Shown here: positions 1-25,001 of the stretch, in pieces
Layout of the letters: each line of letters starts with the position of its first letter
Numbering within the stretch: position 1 is the first letter of the stretch
DNA from: Anaerolineae bacterium
GTDB lineage: Bacteria; Chloroflexota; Anaerolineae; B4-G1; DUEL01
Assembly (NCBI GenBank): GCA_016931695.1
Contig: JAFGEI010000004.1
Coordinates: forward strand, 1-64,000
Length of the DNA stretch: 64,000 nt
Direction: 5' to 3'
Translations under genes and position numbers: made by a program
The notes under the pieces: model-generated
Told to the model about the DNA's origin: nothing
What the model saw: only the letters and a program-made list of their open reading frames with translations
Databases searched by the model: none

Positions 1-77
1 AAGCGGCCAGGCCGGCGTTTCCGACGGGGATCTGACGATCCCCTCCGAGCAAGAACTGGTTGTTCATTTCGGCCGCG
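1..77. repeat. Family-1 repeat, copy 1 (77 bp, possibly truncated by the window edge). It differs at 3 of 77 positions from the copy at 8488-8564 and contains a GGGGATC-tgac-GATCCCC mini-hairpin.
   Basis: Direct alignment of 1-77 against 8488-8564 gives 3 mismatches. Both copies sit just 3' of minus-strand genes (greA, mcm) in the same orientation. Confidence 0.8.
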
Positions 78-3701: not shown

Positions 3702-3736
3702 TCGTTGCCAACACGCTACCCTTGTCGAGGGGAGGC

Positions 3737-4183
3737 CTAGGAGATCAAGAGTTCTCGCACCACCTGGTTGACCAGCCGGCCGTCGGCCTGTCCCTTCATT
3801 TGAGGCATCAGTTGTTGCATCACCGCTCCCAAGTCGCCCGGCCCCGTGGCTCCTACCTCGGCAATGACCCGGCGGGCTTGCACGGCGATTTCTTCAGGTG
3901 TCAGCATCTGGGGGAGATATGTTTCCAGGAAAGCCAACTCCTGTTCTTCTTCGGCCAGTCGCTCCGGCCGGCTCGCCTCTTGCAGCTCCTCGATCGTCTC
4001 GCGGCGCTTCTTGGCCTCGCGTTGCAGCAGGGCCGCGAGAGCAGGCTCGTCCAGTTCGCCTCCTTGTTCCACCTCGGCCAATTGGATCGCCGCCAGGCAC
4101 ATGCGGATGACCGACTTGCGAAGCTCGTCCCGCTCGCGCAGGGCTTGTTTCAGATCCTCTTGCAGCTGCTCTTTCAGGCCCAC
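3737..4183 (-). CDS. yqeY: GatB/YqeY domain protein
   Basis: 148-aa protein with a typical YqeY sequence (LKQALRERDELRKSVIRMCLAAIQ...). GTG start with AGGAG 6 nt upstream, 9 nt after the rpsU stop. Confidence 0.85.
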   Translation of the reverse strand: MGLKEQLQEDLKQALRERDELRKSVIRMCLAAIQLAEVEQGGELDEPALAALLQREAKKRRETIEELQEASRPERLAEEEQELAFLETYLPQMLTPEEIAVQARRVIAEVGATGPGDLGAVMQQLMPQMKGQADGRLVNQVVRELLIS

Positions 4184-4405: not shown

Positions 4406-4540
4406 TTTACGTCTCACCCCCTCCCCATGTGTACTTGGTAGCTCGCAACTGCTCAGCCAATCGCCCCTGGAGCATCGGCGACAACGGTGGGAGAACGTCC
4501 AGGGGCGAAATGCGGCCTTGTCAACGTAGCTACGGCGTCC

Positions 4541-4568
4541 ATTATAACCCAGGAAAAGGCTTTGTCAA
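4541..4568 (-). promoter_or_regulatory. Putative sigma70-type promoter of rpsU-yqeY (minus-strand TTGACA-16-TATAAT)
   Basis: Reverse complement reads cTTGACAaagccttttcctgggtTATAATgg. It lies upstream of the rpsU start. Confidence 0.45.
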
Positions 4569-5255: not shown

Positions 5256-5413
5256 TTGTAGCACGACAATGTAACTGCTCAGCCCGACCCGCGACGCACC
5301 TTCCCGAAAGCTTTACTGGCGCTCACTTCACACAGAGCACACGGTAGCGCAGGTTTCGATGAGCCGGGCAGGCGATTTTCAGCTTTTGGGAAGGCCGCCT
5401 GAGCGGCCCGAAC
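5256..5413. repeat. Family-2 palindromic intergenic element, copy A
   Basis: Left arm aactgctcagcccgacccgcgacgcaccttcccgaaagcttt and right arm cagcttttgggaaggccgcctgagcggcc form an imperfect inverted repeat of about 150 bp. The unit recurs at 12999-13071, 13258-13321 and 19357-19494. Confidence 0.65.
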
Positions 5414-5418
5414 GATAG

Positions 5419-5757
5419 CTAACCTGGCGGCCAGCCGAAGGAGCGCCCCCCCATCAGGTGCATGTGCAGGTGATAGATGGATTGTCCGGCCTGGAGGCCG
5501 GTATTGACGACCAGGCGATAGCCTTCAAGTTCCAATTCCTCGGCCAGGTGACGGGCCACCGTAAAGAGCCGGCCCAACGCCGGCTCGTCCACCGGCGTGA
5601 CCTGGTCTACCCCATCCAGGTGATGGTTGGGAACGATGAGAATGTGAACCGGGGCGCGGGGATGCAGGTCCTGGAACGCCGTAACCCGCTGGTCCTGGTA
5701 GACGATCTGTGCCGGTGCCTGGCCCTGGACGATGCGGCAAAAGATACAGTCTTTCAT
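5419..5757 (-). CDS. HIT (histidine triad) family hydrolase
   Basis: 112-aa protein with the HLHMHLMGG histidine-triad motif. It overlaps the mtaB stop by 4 nt. Confidence 0.9.
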   Translation of the reverse strand: MKDCIFCRIVQGQAPAQIVYQDQRVTAFQDLHPRAPVHILIVPNHHLDGVDQVTPVDEPALGRLFTVARHLAEELELEGYRLVVNTGLQAGQSIYHLHMHLMGGRSFGWPPG

Positions 5758-7025
5758 GCGCTGATTTCTCCGATCAACACGTTATTGGCGGTGCCCACCA
5801 TCCGTGTCCGGGTAATGCGATTGTGCAGGTCTGCCTGCAAGGCGACCGTTACCGGCAAATAGTTGTCGGTCCAGCCGCGCCAGCGTCCATTCTGGCCGCG
5901 CTCCCACAACACGTCTATTTCCTGGCCGACGTGCTGTTGGCGAAAGCGCGCCGCCAGCCGTTCCCCCAACTCGCGCATGCGGCGGGCCCGTTCCTGCCGC
6001 ATGGGGACGGGAACCTGGTCGTCCATCTGCGCAGCACGCGTCCCCGGCCGGGCCGAAAAGGGAAAAACGTGCAGGCGGGCAAAGCCTATTTGCGCTACAA
6101 AGGCCTGGCTTGCGGCAAAGTCCGCCTCGTCCTCGCCGGGAAAGCCAACTATGAGATCGGTAGTCAGCGCCAGGCCGGGAATGGCGGCACGGGCGGCCGC
6201 CGCCAACTGTGCGTACTGCCCGGTATCGTTGCGCCGTCCCATCCGCCGCAGCGTGGCGTCACAGCCAGACTGCAGGGGCAGGTGAAGCTGGCGGCAGAGG
6301 CGCGGGTCGGACCATAGTTCCAGGTCCCGCTCTGCCAGGTCCCACGGTTCCAGGGAAGAGAGGCGCAGGCGGGGCAGGCGCGTCTGCGCCAGGATCGCCT
6401 CCACCAGGCCGGCCAGCCCCCGCTCTATTCCCCGCTCGCGGCCATAGGCGCCCAGATTGACCCCGGTGAGCACGACTTCCCGGTATCCTTCTGCTACGCG
6501 CTGCCGGACCTCGGCCACGACCTCGGCCGACGAGCGGCTGCGGGATGGCCCGCGCAGCAGCGGGACGATGCAGTAGGCGCAGCGGTTGTCGCACCCATCC
6601 TGGACCTTGACGAAAGCGCGGGTGTGCAGAAAAGCGCCGAGGTCTTGTCCGCCTGCTGGCAGGGGGAACGTGGTATCGGGAGAGAGATCATACAGCAGGA
6701 TGTCGACCACCCGCTCTTTTTCGTCGTTGGGAATGACCCATTTGACGCCGGGGAGCTGGCCCAGTTTCCCGGCGTGCAGCGTCGCCGCGCAGCCGACAAC
6801 CGCAATCCGTAGCACGGGATTCGCCCGCCGCAGCGAGCGCAGCAGCCGGCGCCCTTTTTTCTCGGCGCTGGCAGTCACCGCGCAGGTGTTGACGACGCAC
6901 AGGTCTGCCTGGGCCGGATCGCCGACCAGGATCTGCCCTGCCGCCGCCAGGTGGCGGGCGAACGACTCGGTCTCACTCCGGTTCAGGCGACAGCCCAGGC
7001 TGTGGAGATAGACGCGCTGGCTCAT
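5754..7025 (-). CDS. mtaB: Radical-SAM methylthiotransferase, MtaB/YqeV-like (MiaB family)
   Basis: N-terminal MTTase Cys triad (LGCRLN...C..C), radical SAM CAYCIVP motif, and a TRAM-like C-terminus. Position near rpsU matches B. subtilis yqeV. Confidence 0.85.
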   Translation of the reverse strand: MSQRVYLHSLGCRLNRSETESFARHLAAAGQILVGDPAQADLCVVNTCAVTASAEKKGRRLLRSLRRANPVLRIAVVGCAATLHAGKLGQLPGVKWVIPNDEKERVVDILLYDLSPDTTFPLPAGGQDLGAFLHTRAFVKVQDGCDNRCAYCIVPLLRGPSRSRSSAEVVAEVRQRVAEGYREVVLTGVNLGAYGRERGIERGLAGLVEAILAQTRLPRLRLSSLEPWDLAERDLELWSDPRLCRQLHLPLQSGCDATLRRMGRRNDTGQYAQLAAAARAAIPGLALTTDLIVGFPGEDEADFAASQAFVAQIGFARLHVFPFSARPGTRAAQMDDQVPVPMRQERARRMRELGERLAARFRQQHVGQEIDVLWERGQNGRWRGWTDNYLPVTVALQADLHNRITRTRMVGTANNVLIGEISA

Positions 7026-7040
7026 GCGGTTTACAGTCGA

Positions 7041-7640
7041 TTACGGCGGGGTGACGTGTAGGTTGTCAAAGTGAATTTCAACCCCGCCCTGATAAAACGT
7101 GCCGGCATAGAGGCCGACATTGCCGTGGGAGAACTGTCGATCCTCCACGCGGGCCAACTCTTGCCCGTTGACGACCAGGATCAACGCGCTGCCCTGGGCA
7201 GTCACTTCGATCACGTTGGTCGCCTGTCCCTGGCGAATCGCTTCTGTTGGCGTCCAGTTCCCTCCCAGCAGCTCGGGCGTTCCATCGACAAACTTGCTGA
7301 CCAGGAAATAACCATCCCCGCTGATGGAAAAGCGGTAAAAATTGTCGCTGTCCTCCATTCGCAGCAGCACGCCGTACTCGTTATCGTCGGGCCCGGCGAC
7401 CTGGGTGGCCTCCACGGTGAGGTGAAAATCTCTCAGGTCCTGGCTGGCTGTCGCCCACGCCAGTTGGTTCGGCACGATGACATAGACGCGCAGCACGCCG
7501 TCCTGCACTCCGACCTGGGCCGTGGCGTCGGATTCCACCTGCCAGGCTCCCGGCGAGGCGAAATCCTCGTTCCAAGACACGTCCCCGCCCACACAGGCGG
7601 CCAGCAACAGCGCCAGGAGCAACAGCCAGCCTTTTTTCAT
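7041..7640 (-). CDS. Secreted lipoprotein, unknown function (beta-rich domain), paralog of the downstream-adjacent gene 7637..8284
   Basis: Signal peptide plus lipobox (LLLAACVGG). Shares the motif pattern GYFLVSKFVDG...NVGLYAG...HFDNLHV with 7637..8284. Confidence 0.65.
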   Translation of the reverse strand: MKKGWLLLLALLLAACVGGDVSWNEDFASPGAWQVESDATAQVGVQDGVLRVYVIVPNQLAWATASQDLRDFHLTVEATQVAGPDDNEYGVLLRMEDSDNFYRFSISGDGYFLVSKFVDGTPELLGGNWTPTEAIRQGQATNVIEVTAQGSALILVVNGQELARVEDRQFSHGNVGLYAGTFYQGGVEIHFDNLHVTPP

Positions 7641-8284
7641 TCCTGCTCCTCGGGAGCGACGACCCGCAGATCGTCAAAGTGAACGCGGATCGCCCCCCCT
7701 GTTCCGGTTCCCACTCCCAGGCCGACGTCGCCGCGCCGGAGACTGCCGTCGATCACGCTGGCCACCTGCTGCCCGTCGACGTAGAGGGTGAGCCGATCGC
7801 CCTGGCATACCGCGCGGATTACGTACCGGTCCCCGGTGGGACGAACGCCACTGGACTGTAAAAGCCCCTCTCCAGTCAGCGCCTGCGCCTCGCCATCCTG
7901 CACGCGGAGGATGCCATAATACCCCGCGTCGGCCACCGCAAAGTAGTAAAAGCTGTCCGGCGACTGGTAGCGGCAGATCAGGCCAAAGTGCCCGTTTGCC
8001 GCGCCGGACACCGGCCGGGCCTCGACGTCGATCACCACGTCGGTCAAGCGGTGGTGCGAGCGCGACCAGACAAACCACTGCGGCTCGTACACCTCGATAA
8101 AGTATTCCCCTTCCTGGTACCCCTGGTCAAACATCTCCTGGCTTTCGACCGCCCAACCGCTGTCGGGATTGCCGAACCGATCCTCAAGCAGCGGCTCCTC
8201 ATCTTCCCGGCAGCCTGCGAGCACGAGAAGGGCCACCGCCAGCACGACGGGCAGGACGTGTACGAACCGGTTTTTTGCGCTCAT
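7637..8284 (-). CDS. Secreted lipoprotein, unknown function, tandem paralog of 7041..7640
   Basis: Lipobox VLAGCRED. Shares the motif pattern GYYGILRVQDG...DVGLGVG...HFDDLRV. Four-nt overlap with the downstream paralog. AGGAGGGG SD before the ATG at 8284. Confidence 0.65.
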   Translation of the reverse strand: MSAKNRFVHVLPVVLAVALLVLAGCREDEEPLLEDRFGNPDSGWAVESQEMFDQGYQEGEYFIEVYEPQWFVWSRSHHRLTDVVIDVEARPVSGAANGHFGLICRYQSPDSFYYFAVADAGYYGILRVQDGEAQALTGEGLLQSSGVRPTGDRYVIRAVCQGDRLTLYVDGQQVASVIDGSLRRGDVGLGVGTGTGGAIRVHFDDLRVVAPEEQE

Positions 8285-8314
8285 TCATTCCCCTCCTGGA
8301 TGGCAGTCAGGTCG

Positions 8315-8343
8315 ATTATATCACGTCGTAGAGGCTCGGCCAA
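8315..8343 (-). promoter_or_regulatory. Putative promoter of the lipoprotein pair (minus-strand TTGGCC-17-TATAAT)
   Basis: Reverse complement of 8315-8343 reads TTGGCCgagcctctacgacgtgaTATAAT. It lies about 30 nt upstream of the ATG at 8284. Confidence 0.45.
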
Positions 8344-8402
8344 TTTCTCCTCTTTGCTAGTACACGCAGGCGAAAATACCCCGCCGGTTCTATGCCTGCC
8401 CT

Positions 8403-8456
8403 GGATCCCCGCGCCTGTCCCCGCTTCCGCGGGGATCCGCGGGGACAGGCGCGGGG
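8403..8456. other. GC-rich nested palindrome capable of two mutually exclusive hairpins
   Basis: Arms ccccgcgcctgtccccg (8407-8423) and cggggacaggcgcgggg (8440-8456) are perfect 17-nt complements. Alternatively ggatccccgcg (8403-8413) pairs with cgcggggatcc (8428-8438). Located between the mcm 3' end and the lipoprotein promoter. Confidence 0.6.
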
Positions 8457-8487
8457 ACTTGCGGGAATCCTGGCCCCAGGCCTCGGT

Positions 8488-8564
8488 AAGCGGCCAGGTC
8501 GGCGTTTCCGACGGGGATCTGACGATCCCCTCCGGGCAAGAACTGGCTGTTCATTTCGGCCGCG
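8488..8564. repeat. Family-1 repeat, copy 2, ending at the mcm stop codon
   Basis: 74 of 77 positions identical to window positions 1-77. Sequence diverges exactly at the mcm stop (8565-8567). Confidence 0.8.
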
Positions 8565-10226
<1,662 letters not shown>

Positions 10227-10249
10227 GGCTCTGCTCCTTCCCGCGCGAG

Positions 10250-11692
10250 TCACGCGATCACCTGGCCCTGCATGTCCGGCGGCACGCGCAGCCCCATCCA
10301 CTGTAACACCGTGGGCGCCACGTCCATCAACTGCATCCCGGCGACAGTTCGACCACCATAGTTTCGCCGCGGGTCCCACAGGATCAACACCCCATCCTGG
10401 TCGTGATTTGCGTCATCCGGCCCTGTGTCGTTCTCGGTCGTGTAGAGCTGGGGCAGCCCAAAAGAGCCGACCGCCCGCCAGCGCAGGTTGCCGAAATAGA
10501 CCAGCAGGTCGGGGGCGACGTTGCGCACCTCCCGGTAAAGTTCCTGCGGCTTGAAGGCGACCGAGCCCATCGGCTCTCCCGCGGGATCGGGGATCGCTTC
10601 GATCCGCTCTTTCAGTTCGTCGCGCGCCTGTTCGTAGCGGGCGGCGGGGATCTTGCCCTGCGGCTCCCGTCCCTGCACGTTCATAAAGATGCGCGAATAG
10701 TAGCCGCCGGCCCCCCAGGCGGTCGTTCGTTCCCAATCGACCTCCACCTTCTCGAAGGGGACCAGCCCCTCGTGGGGCATCTCGTCCTCCTTGAGCACCA
10801 GCAGCCCCTCCTGTCGCAGCCACTCGTTGACGGCAAAGCCCCCTTCCATCGCCTGGGCGCCGTGGTCGGAAACCACCATCACCACGGTGTCGTCGTCCAG
10901 CATGCCCAGTATCTCGCCCAATTCTCGATCCAGGTAGCGATAGTAGGCGGGGATGGCATCCTGGTAGCGGTTACCCGGTTCGTGCCTGGCGTGCGCGGGG
11001 TCCCAGAATTTCCACATGCCGTGGTGGATGCGGTCCAGCCCGATCTCGACGAACATGAAGAAATCCCACGGCTTTTCCCGCAGCAAGTATTTGATCACCG
11101 CGAACCGTTTCTCGGTCATCTCCTGGATCTGTCGCAAGAGATGGTCCTTGTCCTCGGTGCGGAACTGGGGAACGTCGACGTCATAGATGCGCCCCGCGAG
11201 GACCTGGTCGATCTCGTGGCGCAGCTCGTTGGGAAACGTGTATTGGCGCTGAGTGCTGGGGGTCAGGAAACTGCTGACCAGGTTGCCCCGCAGGGGGCGG
11301 ATGGGGTACGTCTGCGGCACGCCGACGACGACCGAGGTCTTGTCCGCCGCGCTCAAAATGTCCCAGACCCGTTTTTCGTGGATGGCGTCGGCGGTCGCGA
11401 TGGTCATGCGGTCGTAGGAGTGATCGGCCCGGTTGCGAAAGCCATAGAACCCCAGCACGCCAGGATCCTTGCTGGAGAGCATCGAGGTCCAGGCCGGGAC
11501 GGTGATGCAGGGGATGGAACTGGACAGGGGGCCGTAGAGCCCCTCGTCGATCAAGCGGCTCAAGTTGGGCAGTTGGTCCTTCAGGCCGATGCGGCTCTCT
11601 GCGCCGGTCTGGAACAACACCGGCGGCGGGGCACAATCGAGCCCGACGACGAGGACCTTGCGGGACTTTTGACGCGAGAATAGCTTGAGCAT
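10250..11692 (-). CDS. Alkaline-phosphatase superfamily protein (type I phosphodiesterase / nucleotide pyrophosphatase-like)
   Basis: Metal and catalytic motifs of the AP/NPP family ([25 protein letters not shown]). 480 aa. Confidence 0.75.
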
Positions 11693-11763
11693 AAGAAATC
11701 CTTTCTAGCACAATGTTCCAGGGTTCAGGCTTGAGACACTCAACCTGAAATCTGGAACTTGTC

Positions 11764-12963
11764 CTATTCCGCTCCCCGTCGTTGTTGCTGCACGCCTTCC
11801 AGCAGTACCCTGGCGACCTCGGGGCGGGTGAACTCTTCGGGCAGCATCTCGCCCCGCTCGAGCATCTCGCGGACCTGGGTGCCGCTCAAAAAGACCCAGT
11901 CCTCGCGCCCGTGGGGACAGGTCTTGGCGGAGACGACCGCCCGGCACTTTTTGCAGTAAAAGGCGTGCTCGAATTTGAGCGGGGTGATGCCAATTTCGTC
12001 GGGTGAGAACTGGTTGAAAATGTTTTGGGCATCGTAGGTGCCATAGTACTTGCCCACGCCGGCGTGGTCGCGCCCGACGATAAAGTGGGTGCAGCCGTAG
12101 TTCTTGCGGGCGATGGCATGCCAGATCGCCTCGCGGGGGCCGGCATAGCGCATTGCAGCGGGGAAAACTCCCAGCAGCACGCGCTCGGCGGGGTAGTAAT
12201 CGCGCAGGATGGTCTGGTAAGAGGCGATGCGCACGTCGGCGGGGATGTCGTCGATCTTGGTCTCGCCGACCAGCGGGTGCAGGAAAAGGCCATCGACGAT
12301 CTCGAGCGCCGTCTTTTGGATGTACTCGTGGGCGCGGTGAATGGGGTTGCGGGTCTGGAAGCCGACCACGGAGCGCCAGCCGCGCCGGGCGAACATGCGC
12401 CGCGTCTGGGCCGGCGTGTGGCGCAGTTCAGGGAATTCGGTCTTGGCCGCGCTGGGCCAATCGACCAGCCAGACGTCGCCGCCCAGCAGGACGTCGCCCA
12501 GGCCATAGACGCGCGCGACGCCGGGATGGGCCTCCTCGGTGGTCTTGTAAACCTCGCGGGCCTCCCGCTCCTTGGTCTCGCGGTCATAGGGGTACTTTTC
12601 CTCGACCTCCATCACCGCCAGAACCCGGTCGCCCTCGCAGAGGGCCACTTCCTGTCCCTCCTTGATGCGCTCGGCCAATTCTTGTTCCACCGGCATGGTG
12701 ATGGGGATTGCCCAGACCAGCCCATTGCTCAGCCGCATCTCTTCGACGCAGCGGTCATAGTCAGCTTTGCGCATGAAACCGGTGAGCGGGCTGAGGGCAC
12801 CGTTTGCCAGCAGCTCTAGGTCAGAGAATCCCATCGGACTGAGGGGAATCTTGGCCATCTGTTCGGCCCGCTCTTGCACTGCTTCCCGCACCTCGCCGCG
12901 CAGGACACGGTCGACCAGCACGCCGCCGTGGGGACGAATCACGTCGTAAAATGTCTCGCTCAA
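11764..12963 (-). CDS. sat: Sulfate adenylyltransferase (ATP sulfurylase)
   Basis: [11 protein letters not shown] and GRDHAGVG motifs; about 400 aa, homo-oligomeric type. Confidence 0.9.
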
Positions 12964-12998
12964 AGTAATACTCCTCTCTCAATTGTTGGATATCCGGA

Positions 12999-13071
12999 CA
13001 GCTGCTCGTCACTTTCCGCCGGGTTGCCAGGACGACAATCCTGCCGGAGCGGGAGAGCAGTGACAGCGCTG
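12999..13071. repeat. Family-2-related intergenic inverted repeat (copy D)
   Basis: Inverted pair gctgctcgtcactttccgccgg / ccggagcgggagagcagtgacagc. Shares acgacaatcctgccggagcgggagagc with the copy at 13262-13290. Confidence 0.5.
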
Positions 13072-13257
13072 TGTGGCTATTCTACTTCAGTGTGCCAGGG
13101 TTGGCAAGAAAAGATCTGCGCCGCGCTTCCGTGACGAAATGCTCTCCGTATCGCTGGATCTGGCAGCCTGTCCCGAGCAAAGCGGAAATAGACCCCAAGT
13201 GTGATTGCCCTGGCCCCTCGCACGAGGTATTTGACACAACCGGGGATATCAGTATAC

Positions 13258-13321
13258 TTTTGTTGTCACGACAATTTTCCTGGGCGGGAGAGCTTCCAGG
13301 CGGGCAGCCTGAGCAGTTGCC
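13258..13321. repeat. Family-2 intergenic element, partial (copy C)
   Basis: ttgttgtcacgacaat matches ttgtagcacgacaat at 5256. gagcttccaggcgggcagcctgagcagttgcc matches the right arm of the 19357-19494 copy. Confidence 0.55.
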
Positions 13322-13452
13322 TTCCATACAGTGAAAACAGTAAAAGGAGCACCCCCCCCATTGGTGAAGGAGGTGATGAGCAAAGAAAGTGAAAACTGTT
13401 CCATTGAACTGCTGATAACCCTTTCCTGAGACTATTTGAGGAGGAGAAAAAG

Positions 13453-15132
13453 ATGAAAAAACTGCGCATTCTCAGCGCCCTGACTGTAGCCTTGTTGCTC
13501 GTCAGCCTGCTTGCCGCTTGTGGTGGCGGAGAAACGGCGACGCCGACCGAAGCCCCCACCGATGTGCCGACAGAGCCGCCGACGGCTTTTGAGCCGATGA
13601 GCCACTCTGCCGACAGCTGTGACTATGGCGGCGAGTTCCTGACCATCGAGGCGCTCGACGAACTGACCGTCCAGTTCACCCTTTGCTATCCCGATCCCGC
13701 CTTCCCTTCCAAGATCGCCTTCTCCGCGCTGAACATTAACGACGCCGGCTATCTGGAAGAGACCGGCGGCGGCGGTGACCTGGTCTCCGCCCCGAACGGT
13801 ACCGGCCCCTACATGGTCGAGAACTGGGTCCGCGGCGAACAGCTGGTGCTCACGCGCTTTGACGATTACTGGGGCACGCCCGCCATCGCCGACACCGTCA
13901 TCTTTCGCTGGAACTCGGAGGCGGCCGCCCGCCTGGTCGAGCTGCAGGCCGGCACGGTGGACGGCATCGACAACCCGGCCTCGGACGACTTTGACGTCAT
14001 CGAGGGCGACCCCGACCTGGCCCTCTACGAACGGCCGGGCACCAACATCTTTTACCTGGGCATGAACAACTGGTACCCGCCTTTTGACAACGAGCGCGTG
14101 CGCCAGGCCTTTGCCATGGCCATCGACAAAGAGCGCATCGTCAACAACTTTTACCCTCGCGGCTCGATCGTCGCCGACCAGTTTATGCCGCCCTCGATCT
14201 TTGGCTACACCCCCGAGGTCGAGTGGTGGGAGTACAACCCCACAGAGGCACAGCGGATCCTGGAGGAAGAGGGCGTGCTGCCCGGCTTCCAGACCACCAT
14301 CACCTATCGTGACGTGGTCCGCTCCTACCTGCCCGAGCCCGGCGTCGTGGCCCAGGACATCCAGGCCCAGCTGGCCGAGATCGGGGTCGAGGTCGAGATC
14401 GTAGTCATGGAGTCCGGCACCTTCCTCGACGCCGCCGATGCTGGCGAGGTCGACGGCTTCCACCTGCTGGGCTGGGGCGCTGACTTCCCCGACGCCGTCA
14501 ACTTTCTCGACTTTCACTTTGGCCGCGGCGCCTCCGACCAGTTCGGCGACGGCTTTGAGGACATCTGGGACGCCCTGGAGCGCGGTGGCTCTCTGGCCGA
14601 CCCCGACGATCGCTACCCCATCTACATCGAGGCCAACGAGCTGATCCGGGAACACGTGCCAATGATTCCCATCGCCCACGGCGGCTCTGGCTGCGCTTAC
14701 CAGGCGGACGTCGCCGGCGCCCACTCCAGCCCGCTGGGCAACGAGTACTTTGCGGTGATGGACCCCGGCGGCCGCAGCCAGTTCGTCTGGATGCAGAACG
14801 CCGAACCGATCGGCCTCTACTGCGCCGACGAGACGGACGGCGAGTCGCTGCGCGCCTGCGAGCAGATCAACGAGCCACTGCTGGCCTACGAGGTCGGCGG
14901 TACCGCCATCGTTCCGGCATTGGCGACCGAGTGCACCGCCAACGACGACCTGACCGTGTGGACCTGCACCCTGCGCGACGGTGTCAAGTTCCACAACGGC
15001 GCGACCTTTGACGCCAACGACGTCGTGCTCTCCTACGTGGCACAGTGGGATGCGGCTCACCCGCTGCACGTCGGCCGCGACGGCAACTTTACTTACTTTA
15101 ACGCCTTCTTTGGGGCTTTTCTGAACGAATAG
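13453..15132 (+). CDS. ABC transporter substrate-binding lipoprotein, family 5 (DppA/OppA-like)
   Basis: Signal peptide plus lipobox LLAACGGG, a Thr/Pro-rich linker, and an SBP family 5 body. GAGGAGGAGAAAAAG SD precedes the ATG. Confidence 0.9.
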   Translation: MKKLRILSALTVALLLVSLLAACGGGETATPTEAPTDVPTEPPTAFEPMSHSADSCDYGGEFLTIEALDELTVQFTLCYPDPAFPSKIAFSALNINDAGYLEETGGGGDLVSAPNGTGPYMVENWVRGEQLVLTRFDDYWGTPAIADTVIFRWNSEAAARLVELQAGTVDGIDNPASDDFDVIEGDPDLALYERPGTNIFYLGMNNWYPPFDNERVRQAFAMAIDKERIVNNFYPRGSIVADQFMPPSIFGYTPEVEWWEYNPTEAQRILEEEGVLPGFQTTITYRDVVRSYLPEPGVVAQDIQAQLAEIGVEVEIVVMESGTFLDAADAGEVDGFHLLGWGADFPDAVNFLDFHFGRGASDQFGDGFEDIWDALERGGSLADPDDRYPIYIEANELIREHVPMIPIAHGGSGCAYQADVAGAHSSPLGNEYFAVMDPGGRSQFVWMQNAEPIGLYCADETDGESLRACEQINEPLLAYEVGGTAIVPALATECTANDDLTVWTCTLRDGVKFHNGATFDANDVVLSYVAQWDAAHPLHVGRDGNFTYFNAFFGAFLNE

Positions 15133-15150
15133 CTTGACGTCGCACCTGTT

Positions 15151-15190
15151 CCTGGTGGGGTGCTGGCTTTTGAGCCAGTGCCCCACCAGG
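15151..15190 (+). terminator. Strong hairpin between dppA and dppB (attenuator or partial terminator)
   Basis: cctggtggggtgctggc-ttttga-gccagtgccccaccagg forms a 17-nt stem with 2 mismatches. It lies 19 nt after the SBP stop, the usual position for SBP-versus-permease differential expression. Confidence 0.5.
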
Positions 15191-15225
15191 GCTGTCTCCT
15201 GCTTGGACGACCAAGAGAGTGTGTT

Positions 15226-16305
15226 ATGACCAGTTACATCATCAGACGGTTGCTGCTGGCAATCCCGGTGCTGTTGGGGATTCTCTTTGCCACTTTTGCC
15301 CTGGCGCGCCTGCTGCCGGGGGACCCGTGCCGGGCCGTCCTGGGCGAGCACGCCACCGACGCAATCTGCGATGCCTTCATGGAGCGGCACGGCCTGGACA
15401 AGCCCATCCCCACCCAGTTCGTGATCTACCTGGGTGAAGTGGCGCGGGGGGAGTTTGGCAATTCGCTCCGCTTCCAGCGGCCGGTCACCGACCTGCTCTC
15501 CGAACGCCTGCCGGTCACGGTCGAGCTGTCCCTCAGCGCGCTGTTCATCGCTACCATCGTTGGCATCCCTCTGGGTGTCATCTCGGCCTATTGGCGCAAC
15601 TCGCCCATCGACGTGGGCACGATGCTGCTGGCGAACACGGGGGTTTCCATGCCCGTCTTTTGGCTGGGCCTGATGCTGGCCTACGCCTTTGCTATCTTGC
15701 TGAAAGGCACTCCTTTCTGGCTGCCCCCGTCGGGCCGGATGACCTCTGGTATGTACCTGCCGCCGCTGTACGAGGCGTGGAACCTGGCCCTGGAGGAAGG
15801 GAGCGCCCTCTACAACATCCTCGCCTTCATATCCAACATGAACATCCTCAACGCCCTGCTGACTGGCAGTTGGGAGGAGCTGTGGGACGCGATCAAACAC
15901 ATGATTTTGCCCGCAGCAGCGCTGGGAACCATCCCGATGTCGATCATTGCCCGCATGACTCGCTCCAGCCTGCTCGAAGTGCTTGGCCTCGACTATGTCC
16001 GCGTGGCGCGATCCAAGGGACTGCGCGAGCTGATGGTGGTGCTCAAGCACGCCTTGCGCAACGCCCTGCTCCCCGTCGTCACCATCATTGGCCTGCAGCT
16101 CGGCTACCTGCTGGGCGGCGCGGTGCTGACCGAGACTATCTTTGGGCTGACCGGAGTGGGTAAATCGCTCTTTGAGGCGATCACGGCCCGCGATTACGTG
16201 GTCGTGCAGGTGTTCACACTGGTCATTGCGGTCGGTTTTGTCATCATCAACCTGATTGTCGACCTGTCGTACGCCTTTCTCGATCCGCGCGTTCGCTTCG
16301 AGTGA
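15226..16305 (+). CDS. ABC transporter permease (DppB/OppB-like)
   Basis: MTSYIIRRLLLAIPVLLGILF... is a typical N-terminus. Start chosen downstream of the hairpin. The ORF track's GTG at 15160 lies inside the hairpin. Confidence 0.85.
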   Translation: MTSYIIRRLLLAIPVLLGILFATFALARLLPGDPCRAVLGEHATDAICDAFMERHGLDKPIPTQFVIYLGEVARGEFGNSLRFQRPVTDLLSERLPVTVELSLSALFIATIVGIPLGVISAYWRNSPIDVGTMLLANTGVSMPVFWLGLMLAYAFAILLKGTPFWLPPSGRMTSGMYLPPLYEAWNLALEEGSALYNILAFISNMNILNALLTGSWEELWDAIKHMILPAAALGTIPMSIIARMTRSSLLEVLGLDYVRVARSKGLRELMVVLKHALRNALLPVVTIIGLQLGYLLGGAVLTETIFGLTGVGKSLFEAITARDYVVVQVFTLVIAVGFVIINLIVDLSYAFLDPRVRFE

Positions 16306-16325
16306 GCAGAACGGAGAGCCCGTCT

Positions 16326-17276
16326 ATGGCTGAACAAGCTGAGAACAAGAGAAACCGACGGCGGCCGCCGCGCAAGGGAAGCAGCCTGTGGCACGATGCC
16401 CTGCGCTATCTGCTCCGCCAGCGCTCGGCCATCCTCGGCCTCGTCATCCTCGGGATCATGCTCGTTGTGGCCATCTTTGCCCCGCTGATCGCTACCCACA
16501 GCCCAACACTGTCGATGCTCGACGTTCCAGAAGAGGTCGAGATGGGCGTCCGCCGCCGCCTGCCGCCGTGCATTCACCTCCTTGGCTGCCCGGAGGAGCA
16601 GCCGCAGCACATCCTGGGCTTGGACAGCAACGTGCGGGACCTGTTCAGCCGCATTGTGTATGGCTCCCGCTACTCGCTTTACATCGGTTTTGCCTCGGTG
16701 GGGTTCGCCATCGTGATCGGCGTCTTGTTGGGCGCGGTGGGGGGGTACCTCGGCGGGTGGGTCGACAACGTGATCATGCGGATTATGGATGTGTTACTGG
16801 CCTTTCCCACCCTGCTGCTGGCGATCGCCATCGTCACCGTGCTGGGGCCGGGGCTGGTCAATGCCTTATTGGCCATCGGCATCGTCTCCATTCCCGCTTA
16901 TGCCCGGGTGATGCGCGCCAGCGTCATCTCGATCAAGGAACGGGACTTTGTGGTCGCCGACCGGGCGCTGGGGGCCTCGCCGGGCCGCATCCTGGTGCGC
17001 CGCATCCTGCCCAATGCCATCACGCCGATGATCGTGCAAGGGACGCTGGGAATCGCCACGGCGATCCTGGACGCGGCAGCGCTCTCTTTCCTGGGGCTCG
17101 GCGCCCAACCGCCGACCCCCGAATGGGGCACGATGTTGGGCGCGGAGAGGACGCAGGTCTTTACCTCGCCGCACCTGGTCTTTTTCCCCGGCCTGATGAT
17201 CATGCTCGTCGTGCTGGCTTTTAACCTGCTGGGCGACGGCCTGCGCGACGCCCTCGACCCGCGCCTCAACCGTTGA
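16326..17276 (+). CDS. ABC transporter permease (DppC/OppC-like)
   Basis: Permease family with the conserved EAA-like region. ATG at 16326 has a GGAGAG SD 9 nt upstream. The ORF track GTG at 16302 overlaps the dppB stop. Confidence 0.85.
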   Translation: MAEQAENKRNRRRPPRKGSSLWHDALRYLLRQRSAILGLVILGIMLVVAIFAPLIATHSPTLSMLDVPEEVEMGVRRRLPPCIHLLGCPEEQPQHILGLDSNVRDLFSRIVYGSRYSLYIGFASVGFAIVIGVLLGAVGGYLGGWVDNVIMRIMDVLLAFPTLLLAIAIVTVLGPGLVNALLAIGIVSIPAYARVMRASVISIKERDFVVADRALGASPGRILVRRILPNAITPMIVQGTLGIATAILDAAALSFLGLGAQPPTPEWGTMLGAERTQVFTSPHLVFFPGLMIMLVVLAFNLLGDGLRDALDPRLNR

Positions 17277-17301
17277 CCGGAACAGGCTGTAGGTGATCGT
17301 G

Positions 17302-18315
17302 ATGGAAACAATGACTGATCGGACCCCACAGGCGGCGCCACCGTCGAATGACAGCATGCTCGACATTCGTGATCTGCGCACCTATTTCTATACCCAGGAC
17401 GGCGTCGTCAAGGCCGTTGACGGCGTCGATTTTTCCGTGCGCCAGGGCGAAATCGTGGGCCTGGTCGGCGAGTCCGGCTGCGGCAAGAGCGTCACCGCCC
17501 TCTCGGTGCTGCGCTTGATCGCCCATCCCGGCAAGATCGAGTCCGGCGAGATATTCTTCGACGGCGTCGACCTGCTCACCCTGCCGCGGCGGGAGATGAC
17601 CCGCATCCGCGGCAGCCGCATCTCGATGATCTTTCAGCAGCCAACCAGCTGCCTCAACCCGGTTTTCGACATCGGCGACCAGCTGGCCGAGGTGCTGGCA
17701 ATTCACAAAAAACTCAAGCGGCGCGTCGGGCGTGAACGGGCCGTCGAATTGCTCAACACCGTCGGTATTCCCGATCCGGAAAAGCGGATCCACGCTTATC
17801 CGCACGAGCTTTCGGGCGGCCAGGCGCAGCGGACGATGATCGCCATGGCCCTGGCCTGTGATCCCGAGCTGCTGATCGCCGACGAGCCGACCACGGCGCT
17901 GGACGTGACGATCCAGGCCCAAATCCTGGACCTGATGCGCAGCCTGCAGGACAGCAGCGGCGCGGCGATTATCCTCATCACCCACGACCTGGGGATCGTC
18001 GCCGAGATGGCCTCCCGCGTGGCGGTGATGTATGCCGGCCAGATCGTCGAGGAGGCGGACGTCACCACCCTGTTCGACGAGCCGCTGCATCCCTACACCC
18101 GGGGCCTGCTCGCCTCGATCCCGGTATTGGGACAGGTGAAGGACGAATTGGAGGTCATCCCGGGCGTCGTGCCCAACCTGATCGACCTGCCGCCCGGCTG
18201 CCGCTTTGCGCCCCGCTGCCGCTACCGGATGCCGGTTTGCAGTGAACAAGACCCCGCCATCTTGACCGTGGCGTCGGGGCACCGGGTCCGATGTTGGTTG
18301 CACGCCGGGCAGTAG
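17302..18315 (+). CDS. ABC transporter ATP-binding protein (DppD/OppD-like)
   Basis: Walker [14 protein letters not shown] signature, and an oligopeptide-type C-terminal Cys motif ([14 protein letters not shown]). Confidence 0.9.
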
Positions 18316-18351
18316 CGACAGCGGGAGTAGCAGGAAGACGAGGGAAAGAGC

Positions 18352-19353
18352 GTGAAACAAGCTGCTGAGAATCTGATCGAGGTCAATCACCTGTTCAAAT
18401 ACTTTCCCGTCCACGGGGGGGTCCTGCGGCGCGTCCAGGGCTGGGTCAAAGCGGTCGACGACGTCAGCTTTACCATCCGCGTTGGGGAAACATTGGGGCT
18501 GGTCGGCGAGTCCGGCTGTGGCAAGACGACCATCGGCCGCTCGATCTTGCGCCTGATCGAGCCCACTCGCGGGCAGGTGCTGTTCGACGGCCAGGACCTG
18601 GTGGCGATGAAGGCCAAAGAGCTCAAGGCTATGCGGCGCAAGATGCAGATCATCTTTCAGGACCCCTATTCCTCCCTCGACCCCCGCGCCCAAATTGGCA
18701 CCATCATCGGCGAAGCGCTGCAGGTTCACGGCGTCAGGGACGCGGCGGAACGCCAGGAACGGGTGATGGAGATATTGACCAAGGTCGGACTGGCCGAAGA
18801 CCACATCCGCCGCTATCCGCACGAGTTCTCTGGCGGTCAGCGGCAGCGCATCGGCATCGCCCGCGCCCTGGTCCTGCGCCCCAGCTTTATCGTCTGTGAC
18901 GAGCCGGTATCCGCCCTGGACGTCTCCATCCAGTCCCAGGTTCTCAACCTGCTGCGGGCGCTGCAGCGCGAGTTCGGCCTGACCTACCTGTTTATCGCCC
19001 ACAACCTGCAGGTGGTCGAGCACATCAGCGACCGCGTGGCGGTCATGTACCTGGGCAAGATCGTCGAGACGGCCGACCGCATCGAGCTCTACCGCAGCCC
19101 CCTTCACCCCTATACCCAGGCCCTGATGTCCGCCATCCCCATCCCGGACCCGACCCTGGAGCGGAAGCGGATCATCCTGGAGGGGGACGTTCCCAGCCCC
19201 GTCGATCCGCCGCCCGGCTGTCGTTTCCACCCCCGCTGCCCGTCGGCGATGGATATCTGCGCGCAACAGGAACCCGCGCTGGTGGAAGTTGAGCCGGATC
19301 ACCACGTCGCCTGCTACTTGTTCCACGACGTCAGCACCCAGGGAACGGGTTGA
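18352..19353 (+). CDS. ABC transporter ATP-binding protein (DppF/OppF-like)
   Basis: Walker [17 protein letters not shown] signature, and a C-terminal [14 protein letters not shown] motif. Confidence 0.9.
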
Positions 19354-19356
19354 GTG

Positions 19357-19494
19357 ACTGCTCAGGCCACCTTCCCGAAAGCTACAACGTGCCCGTCTGA
19401 TGGGCCGAAATCCGCTGTAGCGAGCAATCTGGTACAAACCAGGAGCGCCGGAGCTTTCGGGAAGGTGCATCGCGAGCATAGCTGAGCAGTTGCC
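19357..19494. repeat. Family-2 palindromic intergenic element, copy B, immediately after the dppF stop
   Basis: Left arm gactgctcaggccaccttcccgaaagct. Right arm gagctttcgggaaggtgcatcgcgagcatagctgagcagttgcc. The reverse complement of the right arm nearly equals the left arm of copy A. Confidence 0.7.
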
Positions 19495-19535
19495 AGATTG
19501 AGGGGAAATGAGGCGCCGGGCCATTTCTTTCAGAC

Positions 19536-19564
19536 TTGTCCCTCAACACGGATTATGGTATAAT
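19536..19564 (+). promoter_or_regulatory. Consensus sigma70-like promoter of the tRNA cluster (TTGTCC-17-TATAAT)
   Basis: cTTGTCCctcaacacggattatggTATAATcc; the -10 ends 10 nt before tRNA-Gly. Confidence 0.6.
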
Positions 19565-19866: not shown

Positions 19867-20008
19867 CTCTCAATTGAGACCCCCAGGCGCCGTGGGCGCT
19901 CATACCTGGGGCCCGACCATCATTGTCGACGACATTGCAGCTATGAAGGGCCAGGATCATTGCTCCGCCAGCCGCGCCGGACAGACCGGAACGGTTGCTT
20001 TTAACCGC

Positions 20009-23000
20009 ATGCCCCGCCTCCAGGAGCCGCTGCCGCGGGGCGAGATTGAACTGCCTGCGCCCCCGAGCCGCCCCCCGCTGCCCAAGCTGAACTGGTTCTT
20101 GCTGCTGCTGCCCCTTGCCGGCCTCTTTGTGATGGCCGGGGTCTATGGCGGCCTCCGCGGCGACTGGCTGCTGGCGGCGCCGATGATCGCCCTCTCGACC
20201 ATTTCGCTGACCACCTCCATCGCCGGGCGGCTCGTCCAGCGCCGGCAGCACCAGCAGCAGGCGGAGGAGCAGGAGGCCGCCTACGCCGCGGCGCTGGAGC
20301 AAAAGCGGCAGGACCTGGAGCAGGCGCGGCAGGAGCAGCAGCGCATCCGTACCCAAGTTGACCCGGACCTGGCGTCGCTGCTCGACCGGGCCCAGCGGCG
20401 CGACCCCCGCCTGTGGCAGCGCCGTCCCGACGACGGAGACTTTTTGCACCTGCGGCTGGGCATCGGCTCGCTGCCCTCCACCGTCGCCGTGGCGGCCCCG
20501 CGCGCGCCGCTGCCCGATCCCCGCCTGGAGGCAGTCCTCGCCCTGGCGGCCGAGTACGCCGCTGTCCCCCAGGTGCCGCTGGCGGCGCGCCTCCGCGACG
20601 GGCCGTTGGGCATCGCCGGCCCGCTGCCCGACCGCACCGGCCTGGCCCGCGCGCTGCTCTGCAACCTGGTCGCCCACCACGCACCCGACGACGTCCACCT
20701 CCTTTGTCTCTACTCTCCCCTGCAGGCGGCGGCGTGGGCGTGGCTCAAGTGGCTGCCGCACACCTATGCCCTCCATCCGCAGAGCGGTCGTCACTACCTG
20801 GCGGCAGGCACCGCCGGGTTTGAGGTCGCGCTGAAGGAATTGTTGGAAGAACTGCGCCGCCGGCAGAACCAGCTTTATGCCGCCCAGCAGGAGGAGCGGG
20901 TGCCCGATTGGCCCTGGTTGGTGGTGCTGGTAGAGGACGAAGCGGCGGCCCGGGATGCCCCCGCGATCCACCTGCTGCTCTCGCCGGAGGGCCGGTTGTT
21001 GAAAGCAACCGCCCTCTTCCTGGTCGACGAGATCACCCAGGTGCCGATGGGCTGCCGCGGCGTCGCCGAGGTCCAGACGGACGGGCGGGTCGTCTATTCG
21101 ACTGCTGGCGCTGCGGGCGAGACCCACGCCTGCTGGCCCGAACAGGCCGACGTCACGCTCTGCGAGCGGATCGCCCGCAGCCTGGCGCCCCTGCAAGTGC
21201 GCGCCCGGCGCCTGGATGGCGTGCTGCCCAGCGAGGTTCACCTGCTGGCCATGTTGGGGATTGCTGCTCTCGACGCCTACGACGCTGCCCACTGCTGGGA
21301 GAACGGGGCGCCCTACGGCGCCCTGCGCTCCCCCATCGGCGTGCGGCGGGGCGGGGAGCCCATGCTGCTCGACCTGGCCCCCACCGGCCACGGCCCGCAC
21401 GGCCTGGTCGCCGGCACCACCGGCTCCGGCAAGAGCGAGCTGCTACAGACAATCGTGCTCGGCCTGGCCCTCACGCACCATCCCTACGAGATCGGTTTCG
21501 TGCTGGTCGATTTCAAGGGCGGCGGCGCCTTCTCCGGGCTGGTTGACCTGCCCCATACGTTGGGGCTGGTCACCGACTTGGGCGGGCGCCTGGCCGAGCG
21601 GGCGCTGCTCGCCCTGCGGGCCGAGATGGAGCGGCGCAAGCGGCTCTTTCAGCAGGCCGGTGTCGGCGACGTCGATGGCTACCAGGCCCTGTACCGGCAG
21701 GGGCGGATCGAGCAGCCGCTGCCGCGCCTGGTGATCATCATCGACGAGTTTGCCGAGCTGGTCAGCGACGAGCCGGACTTTATCGACGGGCTCGTCGGCG
21801 TCGCCCGCGTGGGCCGCTCGCTGGGGCTGCACCTGATCCTGGCCACCCAGAGCCCGGCGGGCGTGGTCAAGCAGCAGATTTGGGCTAACGCTCGCTTTCG
21901 CATTTGCCTGCGGGTCGAATCGCGCCAGGAGAGCAGCGAGATGCTGCACCGTCCCGAGGCGGCCGACCTGCCCCGCCTGCCGGGCCGGGGCTATTTCCAG
22001 GTTGGCAACAACGAGTTGTTCGAGCTCTTTCAGGTGGCGCGGGTGGCGGGCCGTTATCTCGCCGGGGTGAGCGAGCCGGCTGTGACGGCGCCGCCGTTGG
22101 CCATCGCCCGCGTCTCTGCCCAGGGCCAGCGGACGCACTTGTTTGACGACAGCGACGTGCAGCCGGGCCAGGCCGCCGGCCACCTGCCCGACCTCCCGCT
22201 CGTCGTCGCCCACCTGGCCCGCACCGCCCGCCGCCTAGGCGTCGACAAGTTGCCCCCGCCCTGGCTCGCTCCGCTGCCGGACCACGTCGCCCTGCCCGAC
22301 CTGCTCGATCGTGCCGCGGTGGGCGGATGGGACGAGGCGGAGGGGATGTGGCGTCCGGCGCGCTGCTGGCTGGCAGCGCCGTTGGGCCTGCTGGACGATC
22401 CGGCGCACCAGCGCCAGCTTCCGCTGTCGATCCCGCTGGAGCAGCAAGACGGGCACCTGATCATCGTCGGCGCGCCCGGCTCGGGCAAGGGCATGCTGGT
22501 GCGCACCCTGGTGATGGGCCTGGCCCACGCCCACGCGCCGGACGCGCTGCACGTCTACCTGCTCCAGTTCGGCGGGCAGGCGCTGCAGGTGCTCCAGCAC
22601 CTGCCCCACGCCGCCGGTCTGTTCACCCCGCTGGACGACGAACGGGTGTCGCGGCTACTGCGCCGCTTGCTCGACGAGCTGGAAGAGCGCAAGGCGCTGT
22701 GCGTCCGCGCCCACGTGGACGGCCTGGCCCGCCTGCGCGGCCTGGGCCCGGAGCGGGTGCCGCCCGCCATCCTCGTCGTCCTGACCGGCGCGGCGGAATT
22801 TCGCGCTGCCTTTCCGGACGAGACTCTTCATCTGACCCGCCTCGTCCGCGAGGGGGGGCCGTATGGGCTGCACGTCATCTTGACCGGCGACCGGGCGGGG
22901 GACGTCGCCCTGGCCATCAGCAGCGTCGTCGCCCGCCGCATCGCCCTGCGCCTGGCCGATGCCAGCGACTATGCCCTCGTGCTGGGGATGACGCCGCTGC

Positions 23001-24028: not shown

Positions 24029-24046
24029 GATTGTCGCGCGATGGCG

Positions 24047-24325
24047 TTATACGACTCGCTGGTCGGTCTCTTCAAAGGCCATGGCAATGCGGCGCAGCTC
24101 GCTGGCGAGCGATTCGATGATCTCGCCCACCCGCACCCGCATCGTCGGCACCTCGTTGTCGAAAATGCGGGTATAGTCGATCTGCGCCATGCCGAGCCAC
24201 TCGCCCTGCAGGCCGTGCACGATGTTGATCGTGCTGTTCAGCACCCCGTCGATCTCCTGGCGGTGGCTGTCCAGCTGGGTGGCGGCGTTGCGCAATTGCT
24301 CGGGGGATACGCGAATTTGGGACAT
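24047..24325 (-). CDS. WXG100 family protein (EsxA/EsxB-like)
   Basis: 92-aa helical hairpin with central W-L-G (QGEWLGMAQ). N-terminus MSQIRVSPEQL. AGGAGGT SD 8 nt upstream. Converges on eccC. Confidence 0.85.
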   Translation of the reverse strand: MSQIRVSPEQLRNAATQLDSHRQEIDGVLNSTINIVHGLQGEWLGMAQIDYTRIFDNEVPTMRVRVGEIIESLASELRRIAMAFEETDQRVV

Positions 24326-24403
24326 CTTGTCATACCTCCTTGTGTGCTGCGTTGTGATTCAGCGGGTCAACCACGCCCGCTGAACGACAAGAATAGAACA
24401 GGG

Positions 24404-24679
24404 CTAGATGACGCGCTCGTCGGTCTCGCGAAAGACCTGGGCGATGCGCTGCAGCTCGGACGAAATCTCGCCCAGCAGCAGGGCAAACTGGGACATGCGG
24501 GGAACCATCTCGTTCCACTGGGCGTAGAACTTGTTCTGCGCCACGCCGTCCCACTCGACGTCCAGCGTTTCGATTGCGCCTTGGAGCGACTGGATGAGGG
24601 ACTCTGCCTCGGCCCGCTTGGTGTCAAAGAGGTGCGCGACACCCTCGAGCCTTTCCGGAGCAACAATGATCTGCGACAT
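24404..24679 (-). CDS. WXG100 family protein (EsxA/EsxB-like), second paralog
   Basis: 91-aa protein with MSQIIVAPERLEG and W-D-G (DVEWDGVAQ). Start trimmed to the ATG at 24679 with a GGAGGT SD. The ORF track extends it to 24886 without support. Confidence 0.85.
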   Translation of the reverse strand: MSQIIVAPERLEGVAHLFDTKRAEAESLIQSLQGAIETLDVEWDGVAQNKFYAQWNEMVPRMSQFALLLGEISSELQRIAQVFRETDERVI

Positions 24680-24718
24680 GGTAACCTCCGATTGGACAGG
24701 ATTGTGGATTCGTGTATA

Positions 24719-24746
24719 ATTATACATGTATTGCGGGAAAATGCAA
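24719..24746 (-). promoter_or_regulatory. Minus-strand TTGCAT-16-TATAAT promoter for the WXG100 gene pair, inside a TATAATTATA palindrome. A plus-strand TTGGAC-17-TATAAT (24692-24720) is arranged back-to-back with it.
   Basis: Reverse complement reads cTTGCATtttcccgcaatacatgTATAATtatac. Plus strand reads TTGGACaggattgtggattcgtgTATAAT. Confidence 0.5.
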
Positions 24747-24952
24747 GTTTCGAGACAACGAGATGACAACGCAGCCCACGAAGCGAGCTTGACCTCTCTG
24801 CTGGTTCCCGCTGAACACCATGACCGGCAGCATCCGCTCTGGGCAACCGACGTAGCTGACAATGAAGAACCAACATGCCGCTCCATTCGAGTACACGCGA
24901 AAACTGTATAATCTCTCTCTTGAGTGTCGGTCTAACCAAGCGGCAGAAAACC

Positions 24953-25001
24953 GGCCACGAATTGACGCGAATTCACACGAATTGACGCAAAATTCGTGGC
25001 C
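24953..25001 (+). promoter_or_regulatory. Leader element upstream of the effector gene: tandem direct repeats ACGAATTGACGC (24957-24968 and 24977-24988) embedded in an inverted repeat ggccacgaatt...aattcgtggcc
   Basis: Seen directly in the sequence. Repeat starts are 20 nt apart. Followed by hairpins cccaggct-tgcc-agcctggg and gggggaaaaagtgggtgc...gcccacctctttcccc before the SD at 25155. Confidence 0.45.

Follow-up and report, generated by a model that had tools for sequence, protein, structure and literature searches.

Intergenic palindromes that share sequence words recur in a 64,000-nucleotide stretch of contig JAFGEI010000004.1 from an Anaerolineae bacterium of the phylum Chloroflexota (hereafter the window, covering 64 kb of the source genome at a G+C content of 64.8%), and the locus raises the question of what these elements are and how they came to lie between genes. 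A first-pass annotation had counted at least four foldback sites and assigned them to a mobile family of the miniature inverted-repeat transposable element (MITE) or repetitive extragenic palindrome (REP) type. The reading favored here, at a probability of about 0.8, is that the elements are copies of a ~140-bp non-autonomous DNA transposon, that is, a MITE with ISBst12-group IS66-type ends, in an uncultured Anaerolineae host. The window contains two old full copies and one or two remnants of it.

Two full copies and their anatomy

The shared motifs are not chance GC-rich words, as five occurrences of the 9-mer ACTGCTCAG were counted in the window where 0.4 would be expected, and none of 100 shuffles reached that count. 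The 15-mer ACCTTCCCGAAAGCT is present three times exactly and once with two mismatches, always within two elements, designated copies D and A (Table 1). Their anatomy consists of 13-nt terminal repeats, a perfectly paired 15-bp inner stem formed by ACCTTCCCGAAAGCT and AGCTTTCGGGAAGGT, a diverged interior of ~68 nt, and a 14-nt unpaired segment on one side. Of the foldbacks proposed earlier, two are real, being ~140 bp long with both motifs inverted: the site at 19357-19494 corresponds to copy D and that at 5256-5413 to copy A. The other two dropped out of the count. The site at 13258-13321 gave folding z-scores of -0.25 and +0.9, with only positions 13291-13320 resembling an arm plus terminal repeat. 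The one at 12999-13071, for which no profile hit appeared at E < 50, is an independent hairpin of 70 nt (z about -2.5). The arms had been described as alike between loci, and those of A and D are indeed 85% identical over 40 nt without a gap. The supposed 13-nt insert distinguishing the loci is a 14-nt segment present in both copies (9 of 14 positions identical); it is extra only against the opposite arm of the same element, in A and D alike.

Copy D folds with an energy of -68 kcal/mol (z = -4.8 relative to shuffled sequence), and its terminal repeats pair with each other, GTGACTGCTCAGG with the reverse complement GCAACTGCTCAGC. It is bordered on the 5' side by the end of dppF and on the 3' side by a tRNA-Gly/Cys/Leu cluster. 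Its position at a gene end, as first described, is exact, since its start at 19354 adjoins the dppF stop codon TGA (19351-19353). The region 3' of dppF is not syntenic in relatives.

The layout of copy A is on the opposite strand; relative to their flanking genes, A and D point the same way. The arms of A include one G.U pair, and its folding is not exceptional (z = -0.75 to -1.7 relative to shuffled sequence). The copy occupies the space separating two minus-strand genes, one of the HIT family and one with a CBS domain. This spacer measures 176 nt in the window. In four syntenic relatives, whose CBS protein is 72-75% identical and which keep the gene order MiaB-like, HIT, CBS and S21, with YqeY and PgpH-like next where the contig allows, it is 31-53 nt long; copy A therefore represents a lineage-specific insertion. 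No promoter-like or terminator-like sites were predicted inside A or D, and neither resembles an intrinsic terminator, as the loop is 68 nt long and a T-run is lacking. Lying between co-directional genes without such internal sites, copy A is probably transcribed as part of an mRNA, in which a long hairpin would form. Because the interiors of A and D have diverged and their duplications have decayed, the window copies appear to be old and inactive.

Table 1. Coordinates of the MITE copies, their parts and other features in the window.
Feature	Position	Strand	Remarks
Copy D, full 140-bp MITE	19354-19493	+	Motif hits, fold, whole-length alignment with copies of other genomes
D left target-site duplication, probable	19346-19353	+	CGGGTTGA; holds dppF stop TGA
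D left terminal repeat	19354-19366	+	GTGACTGCTCAGG; 2 nt, then arm
D arm	19369-19383	+	ACCTTCCCGAAAGCT
D interior	19384-19451	+	68 nt
D arm	19452-19466	+	AGCTTTCGGGAAGGT
D unpaired segment	19467-19480	+	14 nt
D right terminal repeat	19481-19493	+	GCTGAGCAGTTGC
D right target-site duplication, probable	19494-19501	+	CAGATTGA; 6/8 identical to left copy
Copy A, full but more decayed MITE	5271-5413	-	~143 bp; nhmmer E = 2e-16 (type-1 profile), arm hits
A terminal repeat	5271-5283		GTAACTGCTCAGC (+ strand letters)
A arm	5298-5312
A interior	5313-5380
A second arm	5381-5395		2 mismatches
A degenerate terminal repeat	5398-5413		CCTGAGCGGCCCGAAC
Truncated remnant	13291-13320	+	Degenerate arm AGCTTCCAGGCGGG + terminal repeat CCTGAGCAGTTGC (13308-13320)
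Doubtful relative, ~80-nt insert in rpsU 5' leader	4445-4525	-	One terminal repeat only; no profile hit
EssC-like protein	19874-24028		1384 aa; FtsK/SpoIIIE domains (three matched stretches)
Two WXG100 proteins	24047-24325, 24404-24886
WXG100-calpain protease fusion	25007-26329
YukD-like protein	26649-27701

Terminal repeats, target-site duplications and copies elsewhere

The terminal inverted repeats are 13 nt long (GTAACTGCTCAGC/G, GTAACTGCTCAGG-like); copy A ends in GTAACTGCTCAGCC. By their sequence, these repeats identify the ISBst12-group IS66-type family. They start with GTAA and are GTAACTnnTCAGC-like, as is characteristic of the group. In ISDge4 of Deinococcus geothermalis, an IS66-family element of the ISBst12 group whose transposition has been observed (PMC12898284), the reported termini are GTGACTACTCAGCA and GTAACTGCTCAGCA, insertion generates an 8-bp direct repeat, and a single transposase of 449 aa is encoded (PMC12898284; also PMC8369957). 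The window ends are identical to the reported ISDge4 repeat at 13 of 14 positions. Likewise, 13 of 15 positions are identical to the end of an insertion sequence (IS) on Geobacillus kaustophilus pHTA426, which has the ends GTAACTATTCAGCCC and, as reverse complement, GTATCTATTCAGCCC, a flanking 8-bp duplication (AACTCGTC), and a transposase annotated as 'IS66-like element ISGka4 family transposase'. The ends of these two elements (GTAACTGCTCAGCA and GTAACTATTCAGCCC) thus resemble that of the window copies (GTAACTGCTCAGCC), and the 8-bp duplication is common to both sides. In contrast, elements of the ISBst12 group are 1.47-1.6 kb long with a DDE transposase of ~450-485 aa, whereas those of the window are 140 bp and non-coding, and the inner stem ACCTTCCCGAAAGCT was not seen in the Geobacillus IS ends.

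None of the 140-143-bp copies has coding capacity; the open reading frames (ORFs) listed across copies lie on the strand opposite to annotated genes or have low third-position GC, and were taken as spurious. No transposase was found in the window by Pfam searches of all called genes or by tblastn, so the copies are non-autonomous and hence MITEs. Since the element holds no ORF, and thus no TnpC-type DDE transposase, it is a derivative or passenger of the IS66 family and not a member IS. It would be moved by an ISBst12-group DDE transposase whose gene lies at another place in the genome; this enzyme would bind the terminal repeats, and a staggered cut at insertion would leave the 8-bp target-site duplication.

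Further copies were found outside the window by two scans. In a pattern scan of one genome per species, the same element was found in only two Anaerolineales metagenome-assembled genomes (MAGs), of which one, CAYLPU01, carries eight near-identical copies with interiors 97.7% identical. A metagenome scan, in which two exact 12-nt arms spaced 57-87 nt apart were required, located the arm pair ACCTTCCCGAAAGCT/AGCTTTCGGGAAGGT in at least 120 stretches; the loci fetched (designated L) comprise 140 units, among which 135 different interiors were counted. The length of well-preserved copies is 140-141 bp, and A and D can both be aligned from end to end with homologous copies of other genomes (E = 2e-16 to 1e-35). 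The terminal repeats pair at 11 of 13 positions in the CAYLPU01 copies and at all 13 in L126, where both ends have changed together. Among the CAYLPU01 copies, the excess of arm over loop conservation was not significant (0/120 vs 13/560, p = 0.14), and BLAST of D against plasmids gave only chance matches of 26-28 nt.

Target-site duplications, a check proposed at the outset, were found as perfect 8-bp repeats in at least ten family members. Their sequence varies between sites, as in L011 (CTCCAGTC) and L012 (GACAAAAG), and eight more were found in L036, L065, L070/L079, L024, L068, L122 and L123, the last of which includes a family member with the classic IS66 start GTAAGCG; L080 and L126 have duplications identical at 7 of 8 positions. 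Across all units, perfect 8-bp flanking repeats numbered 20, compared with 6 in a shifted control. The earlier assignment to a mobile repeat family is thus supported by duplications, ends, further copies and empty sites, and the MITE half of the MITE/REP label fits the window copies.

Correia elements of Neisseria and ERIC elements of enterobacteria are similar in their length of ~100-160 bp, terminal inverted repeats and whole-element foldback, as well as in their insertion in short intergenic spacers and at gene ends with likely transcription into mRNA, and effects of RNase III and RNase E have been reported for both (review PMC10969869). They differ in host phylum, which is Chloroflexota for the window, and in sequence. 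Moreover, Correia elements have a TA target duplication, whereas the window family duplicates 8 bp. Within a limited literature search, no description of IS66/ISBst12-derived MITEs was found, and neither 'IS66' nor 'Chloroflex' appears in what a review on MITEs in prokaryotes from 2024 (PMC10969869) says; a similarly limited search for Anaerolineae together with 'miniature inverted-repeat transposable' gave no match, and a full-text search for the arm sequence returned unrelated primer matches only.

The inner stem and rival explanations

The stem reaches further than the ends, and the hairpin core is common among related bacteria. Two positions beyond the searched pattern on each side are conserved at ~90% or more, and core interiors are homologous yet diverged, with a median pairwise identity of ~50%. 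The core was found within at least five types of outer inverted repeat (GTAACTGCTCAGG, GTAAGCGTTCAGC, GGTAGTCACCCCCTTGAGTGTTGTTG, GGGTGYRTTTCA... and CTCAGYAGATGGAAA), the first four of which are flanked by perfect 8-bp duplications in some copies. No gene family was enriched near 110 loci, where the largest cluster was that of sensor kinases (11 loci) and transposases did not appear.

Several results weigh against the transposon reading. Within the Anaerolineae sequence examined, comprising the window and the fetched loci, an autonomous ISBst12-type element bearing these ends was not detected, and tblastn with the Geobacillus ISBst12-type transposase gave no hit in 830 kb of the latter. The only larger element with the same ends in all fetched loci was a MITE of unrelated interior in L123. 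A recognizable target-site duplication is missing at A, and that at D agrees at only 6 of 8 positions. At 72-77% protein identity, the empty-site relatives are too distant for the insertion at A to be dated or polarized precisely. Most metagenome units showed no clear outer inverted repeat, 10 of 128 exceeding the 99th percentile of the control in a test that is insensitive to short imperfect repeats. Finally, the inner stem is also found where IS66-type ends and duplications are both lacking, which means that the terminal repeats do not account for how the family as a whole has spread.

These last forms would be accommodated if the mobile unit were the inner palindrome itself, REP- or REPIN-like and mobilized in single-stranded form, either through a RAYT-type Y1 transposase or along another duplication-free route, with the IS66-type ends being secondary; we consider this unlikely. 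Short hairpins made of the arms alone, with loops of 5-16 nt, lie between successive co-directional genes (three in L090, two in L108, and also in L133), just upstream of the next ribosome-binding site. The arms are also present on two IMG/VR viral contigs. In L149, two identical 112-nt double-hairpin units (1762-1876 and 3291-3405) each lie between co-directional genes, and their similarity stops exactly at the outer ends of the arms without a duplication; in L150, a single hairpin with a 14-bp stem (1022-1056) follows a gene end and is itself followed by an apparent classical terminator hairpin with a T-run. Tandem core arrays without terminal repeats between units were found in L058 (four units, 114-nt period, 3727-4162), L127 (1-393, at least three full units with a 113-nt period, preceded by a partial unit at the locus start), and L043 and L115 (two units each). 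The same core is also enclosed by the five or more end types. Such clusters and arrays, the intergenic palindromes after gene ends and between cistrons, and the inverted doublets forming hairpins of ~100 nt recall REP, BIME and REPIN elements. However, terminal inverted repeats and 8-bp duplications, found in the window and in every well-preserved copy, are not made by REP/RAYT transposition. No Y1/RAYT gene (Y1_Tnp) was detected by Pfam among the window genes, and the 15-nt arm has no strong internal palindrome as is typical of REP units. One of the short hairpins, moreover, keeps the type-2 linker TTCCAAC, and deletions within MITEs may therefore have given rise to the short forms.

A second alternative takes the hairpin as a structured cis-acting RNA, involved in mRNA processing or stability or in translational control, that is kept by selection and merely spread by transposition. 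With orientation set by the interior profile and flanking genes called with a codon-position GC filter, the core was oriented 15:2 relative to co-directional flanking genes (p = 0.002); A and D agree with the majority, at weak scores. This bias suggests selection at the transcript level, and it could reflect an RNA-level role or, equally, removal of an orientation that is harmful inside operons. In addition, substitutions in the stem are paired, with C-G replaced by U-A in seven sequences and G-C by A-U in a single one, and such paired changes were seen in L133 and L108 as well. Copies frequently end 5-60 nt ahead of a start codon, and the arms, as we read the letters, resemble an anti-Shine-Dalgarno/Shine-Dalgarno pair (CACCUUCC / GGAAGGUG). 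A function of the core hairpin is possible. Yet Rfam 15 gave no relevant match at gathering or E-value thresholds, only three tRNAs reaching the gathering score, and nothing relevant around copy A at E <= 10; RNAalifold on 62 and 134 sequences, on either strand, recovered the closing stem only, with no consensus in the interior. The stem is conserved in sequence and not only in pairing, and changes in both arms are also expected from one protein that binds both arms or from gene conversion within the palindrome. Selection against one orientation could likewise produce the bias. The cis-acting RNA seems to us a very improbable explanation.

That the motifs are chance GC-rich words or ordinary terminator hairpins, as might be thought from the 65% G+C content and the unexceptional fold of A, is virtually impossible to reconcile with the 9-mer excess, the whole-length homology to copies in other genomes and the lack of any T-run or terminator-like call inside A or D.

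Two further candidates were considered and rejected. An integron attC site came into question for the position after a stop codon and the variable center; the core-site consensus of attC is RYYYAAC / GTTRRRY, which the element ends do not fit, and Pfam found no integrase among the window genes. The three inner hairpins of D suggested a Y RNA or tRNA-like fold, but they are not conserved in A or in other copies.

Other observations were made at the fetched loci. L123 contains, besides a core-bearing copy on the same contig, a second MITE-like element of 231 bp (3042-3272) with the IS66-type ends GTAAGCGTTCAGGGG ... GGGCTGAACAGTTAC, which lies between two co-directional genes and has a wholly different interior without the ACCTTCCC stem. 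In L042, L084 and L103 the core occupies the same locus next to the same flanking gene start, and no outer inverted repeats were found; the interiors of L042 and L084 are identical and that of L103 is clearly diverged, with flanks diverged similarly, which looks like vertical inheritance of one insertion. At the contig start of L075 (1-140), an 18-nt arm unit (CCCACCTTCCCGAAAGCT) is repeated directly at least six times ahead of a single inverted arm. A promoter-like TTGCCT-N17-TATAAT (by eye) comes after the last L127 unit, and a gene neighboring an L149 unit encodes a beta-helix protein that may be tailspike-like.

Remnants, other window features and consequences

The truncated remnant at 13291-13320 was detected with nhmmer at E = 0.086 and matched the arm-plus-repeat region of the CAYLPU01 copies with blastn at E = 0.003. 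It lies within the 5' leader of a peptide-transporter binding-protein gene, 3' of a promoter-like TTGACA-N16-TATACT (by eye). The insert in the rpsU leader has an end, GCAACTGCTCAGCC (4445-4458), that is identical to the end of copy A at 13 of 14 positions, and a direct repeat, GTAGCT, lies on either side of the insert (4438-4443 and 4526-4531). Its interior is a different hairpin (CGCCCCTGGA / TCCAGGGGCG), and for this reason it is listed as a doubtful relative only. An extra AACTGCTCAGCC had been placed at 4430-4441; its true position is 4447-4458. Upstream of rpsU is a perfect sigma-70 consensus promoter, TTGACA-N16-TATAAT (12/12; 4541-4568, minus strand), which is conserved in relatives, and the leaders downstream of the same promoter in these relatives are ~80 nt shorter than that of the window.

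The separate hairpin that had been counted as a family member is an imperfect one of 70 nt within 12985-13080, GTCACTTTCCGCCGG ... CCGGAGCGGGAGAGCAGTGAC, in the divergent region upstream of an ATP-sulfurylase gene; one side of it (reverse complement GTCACTGCTCTC) is loosely MITE-end-like, with no profile match. A second, unrelated repeat was also noticed: window positions 1-77, which the window edge may truncate, are 96% identical to positions 8488-8564. This repeat contains the hairpin GGGGATC-TGAC-GATCCCC and has no copy in any fetched locus. Just upstream of its second copy lies a palindrome of ~52 nt (8406-8457) that is 85% self-complementary. Near copy D, a promoter matching at 10 of 12 positions with an extended -10 (TG) precedes tRNA-Gly (19536-19564), and a type VII (WXG100/ESX-like) secretion cluster follows directly after the tRNA genes (19874-27701; Table 1). 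A protein of 1626 aa with a beta-helix/NosD-like domain and six DUF11 repeats is encoded at 57034-61914, and its repeats account for the direct repeats with a 390-nt period that a repeat scan found at 58828-60635.

Small non-coding transposons are common in bacterial genomes, and the kind of element described here is itself ordinary. Its consequences are practical in part. Inserts of 140 bp explain the long spacer between the HIT and CBS genes and the 3' end of dppF, probably the peptide-transporter leader and possibly the rpsU leader, and such inserts should be masked ahead of searches for regulatory RNAs. Near-identical copies also break assemblies, as seen in CAYLPU01, in which two contigs end inside one copy that is intact in metagenome contig L082. 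The wider family, with one core, several end types, a 15:2 orientation bias, arrays and phage copies, could be a useful case of hairpin module persistence. A more speculative idea, to which we give a low though not trivial likelihood, is that the 15-bp palindrome ACCTTCCCGAAAGCT / AGCTTTCGGGAAGGT would be a functional module in Anaerolineae and their phages, influencing the processing or translation of mRNA either as a hairpin in intercistronic RNA or as a site bound by a protein, spread by several MITE lineages, tandem duplication and phages, and kept in one orientation by selection. If so, the window copies would be two instances of a phylum-wide regulatory hairpin and not inert transposon debris.

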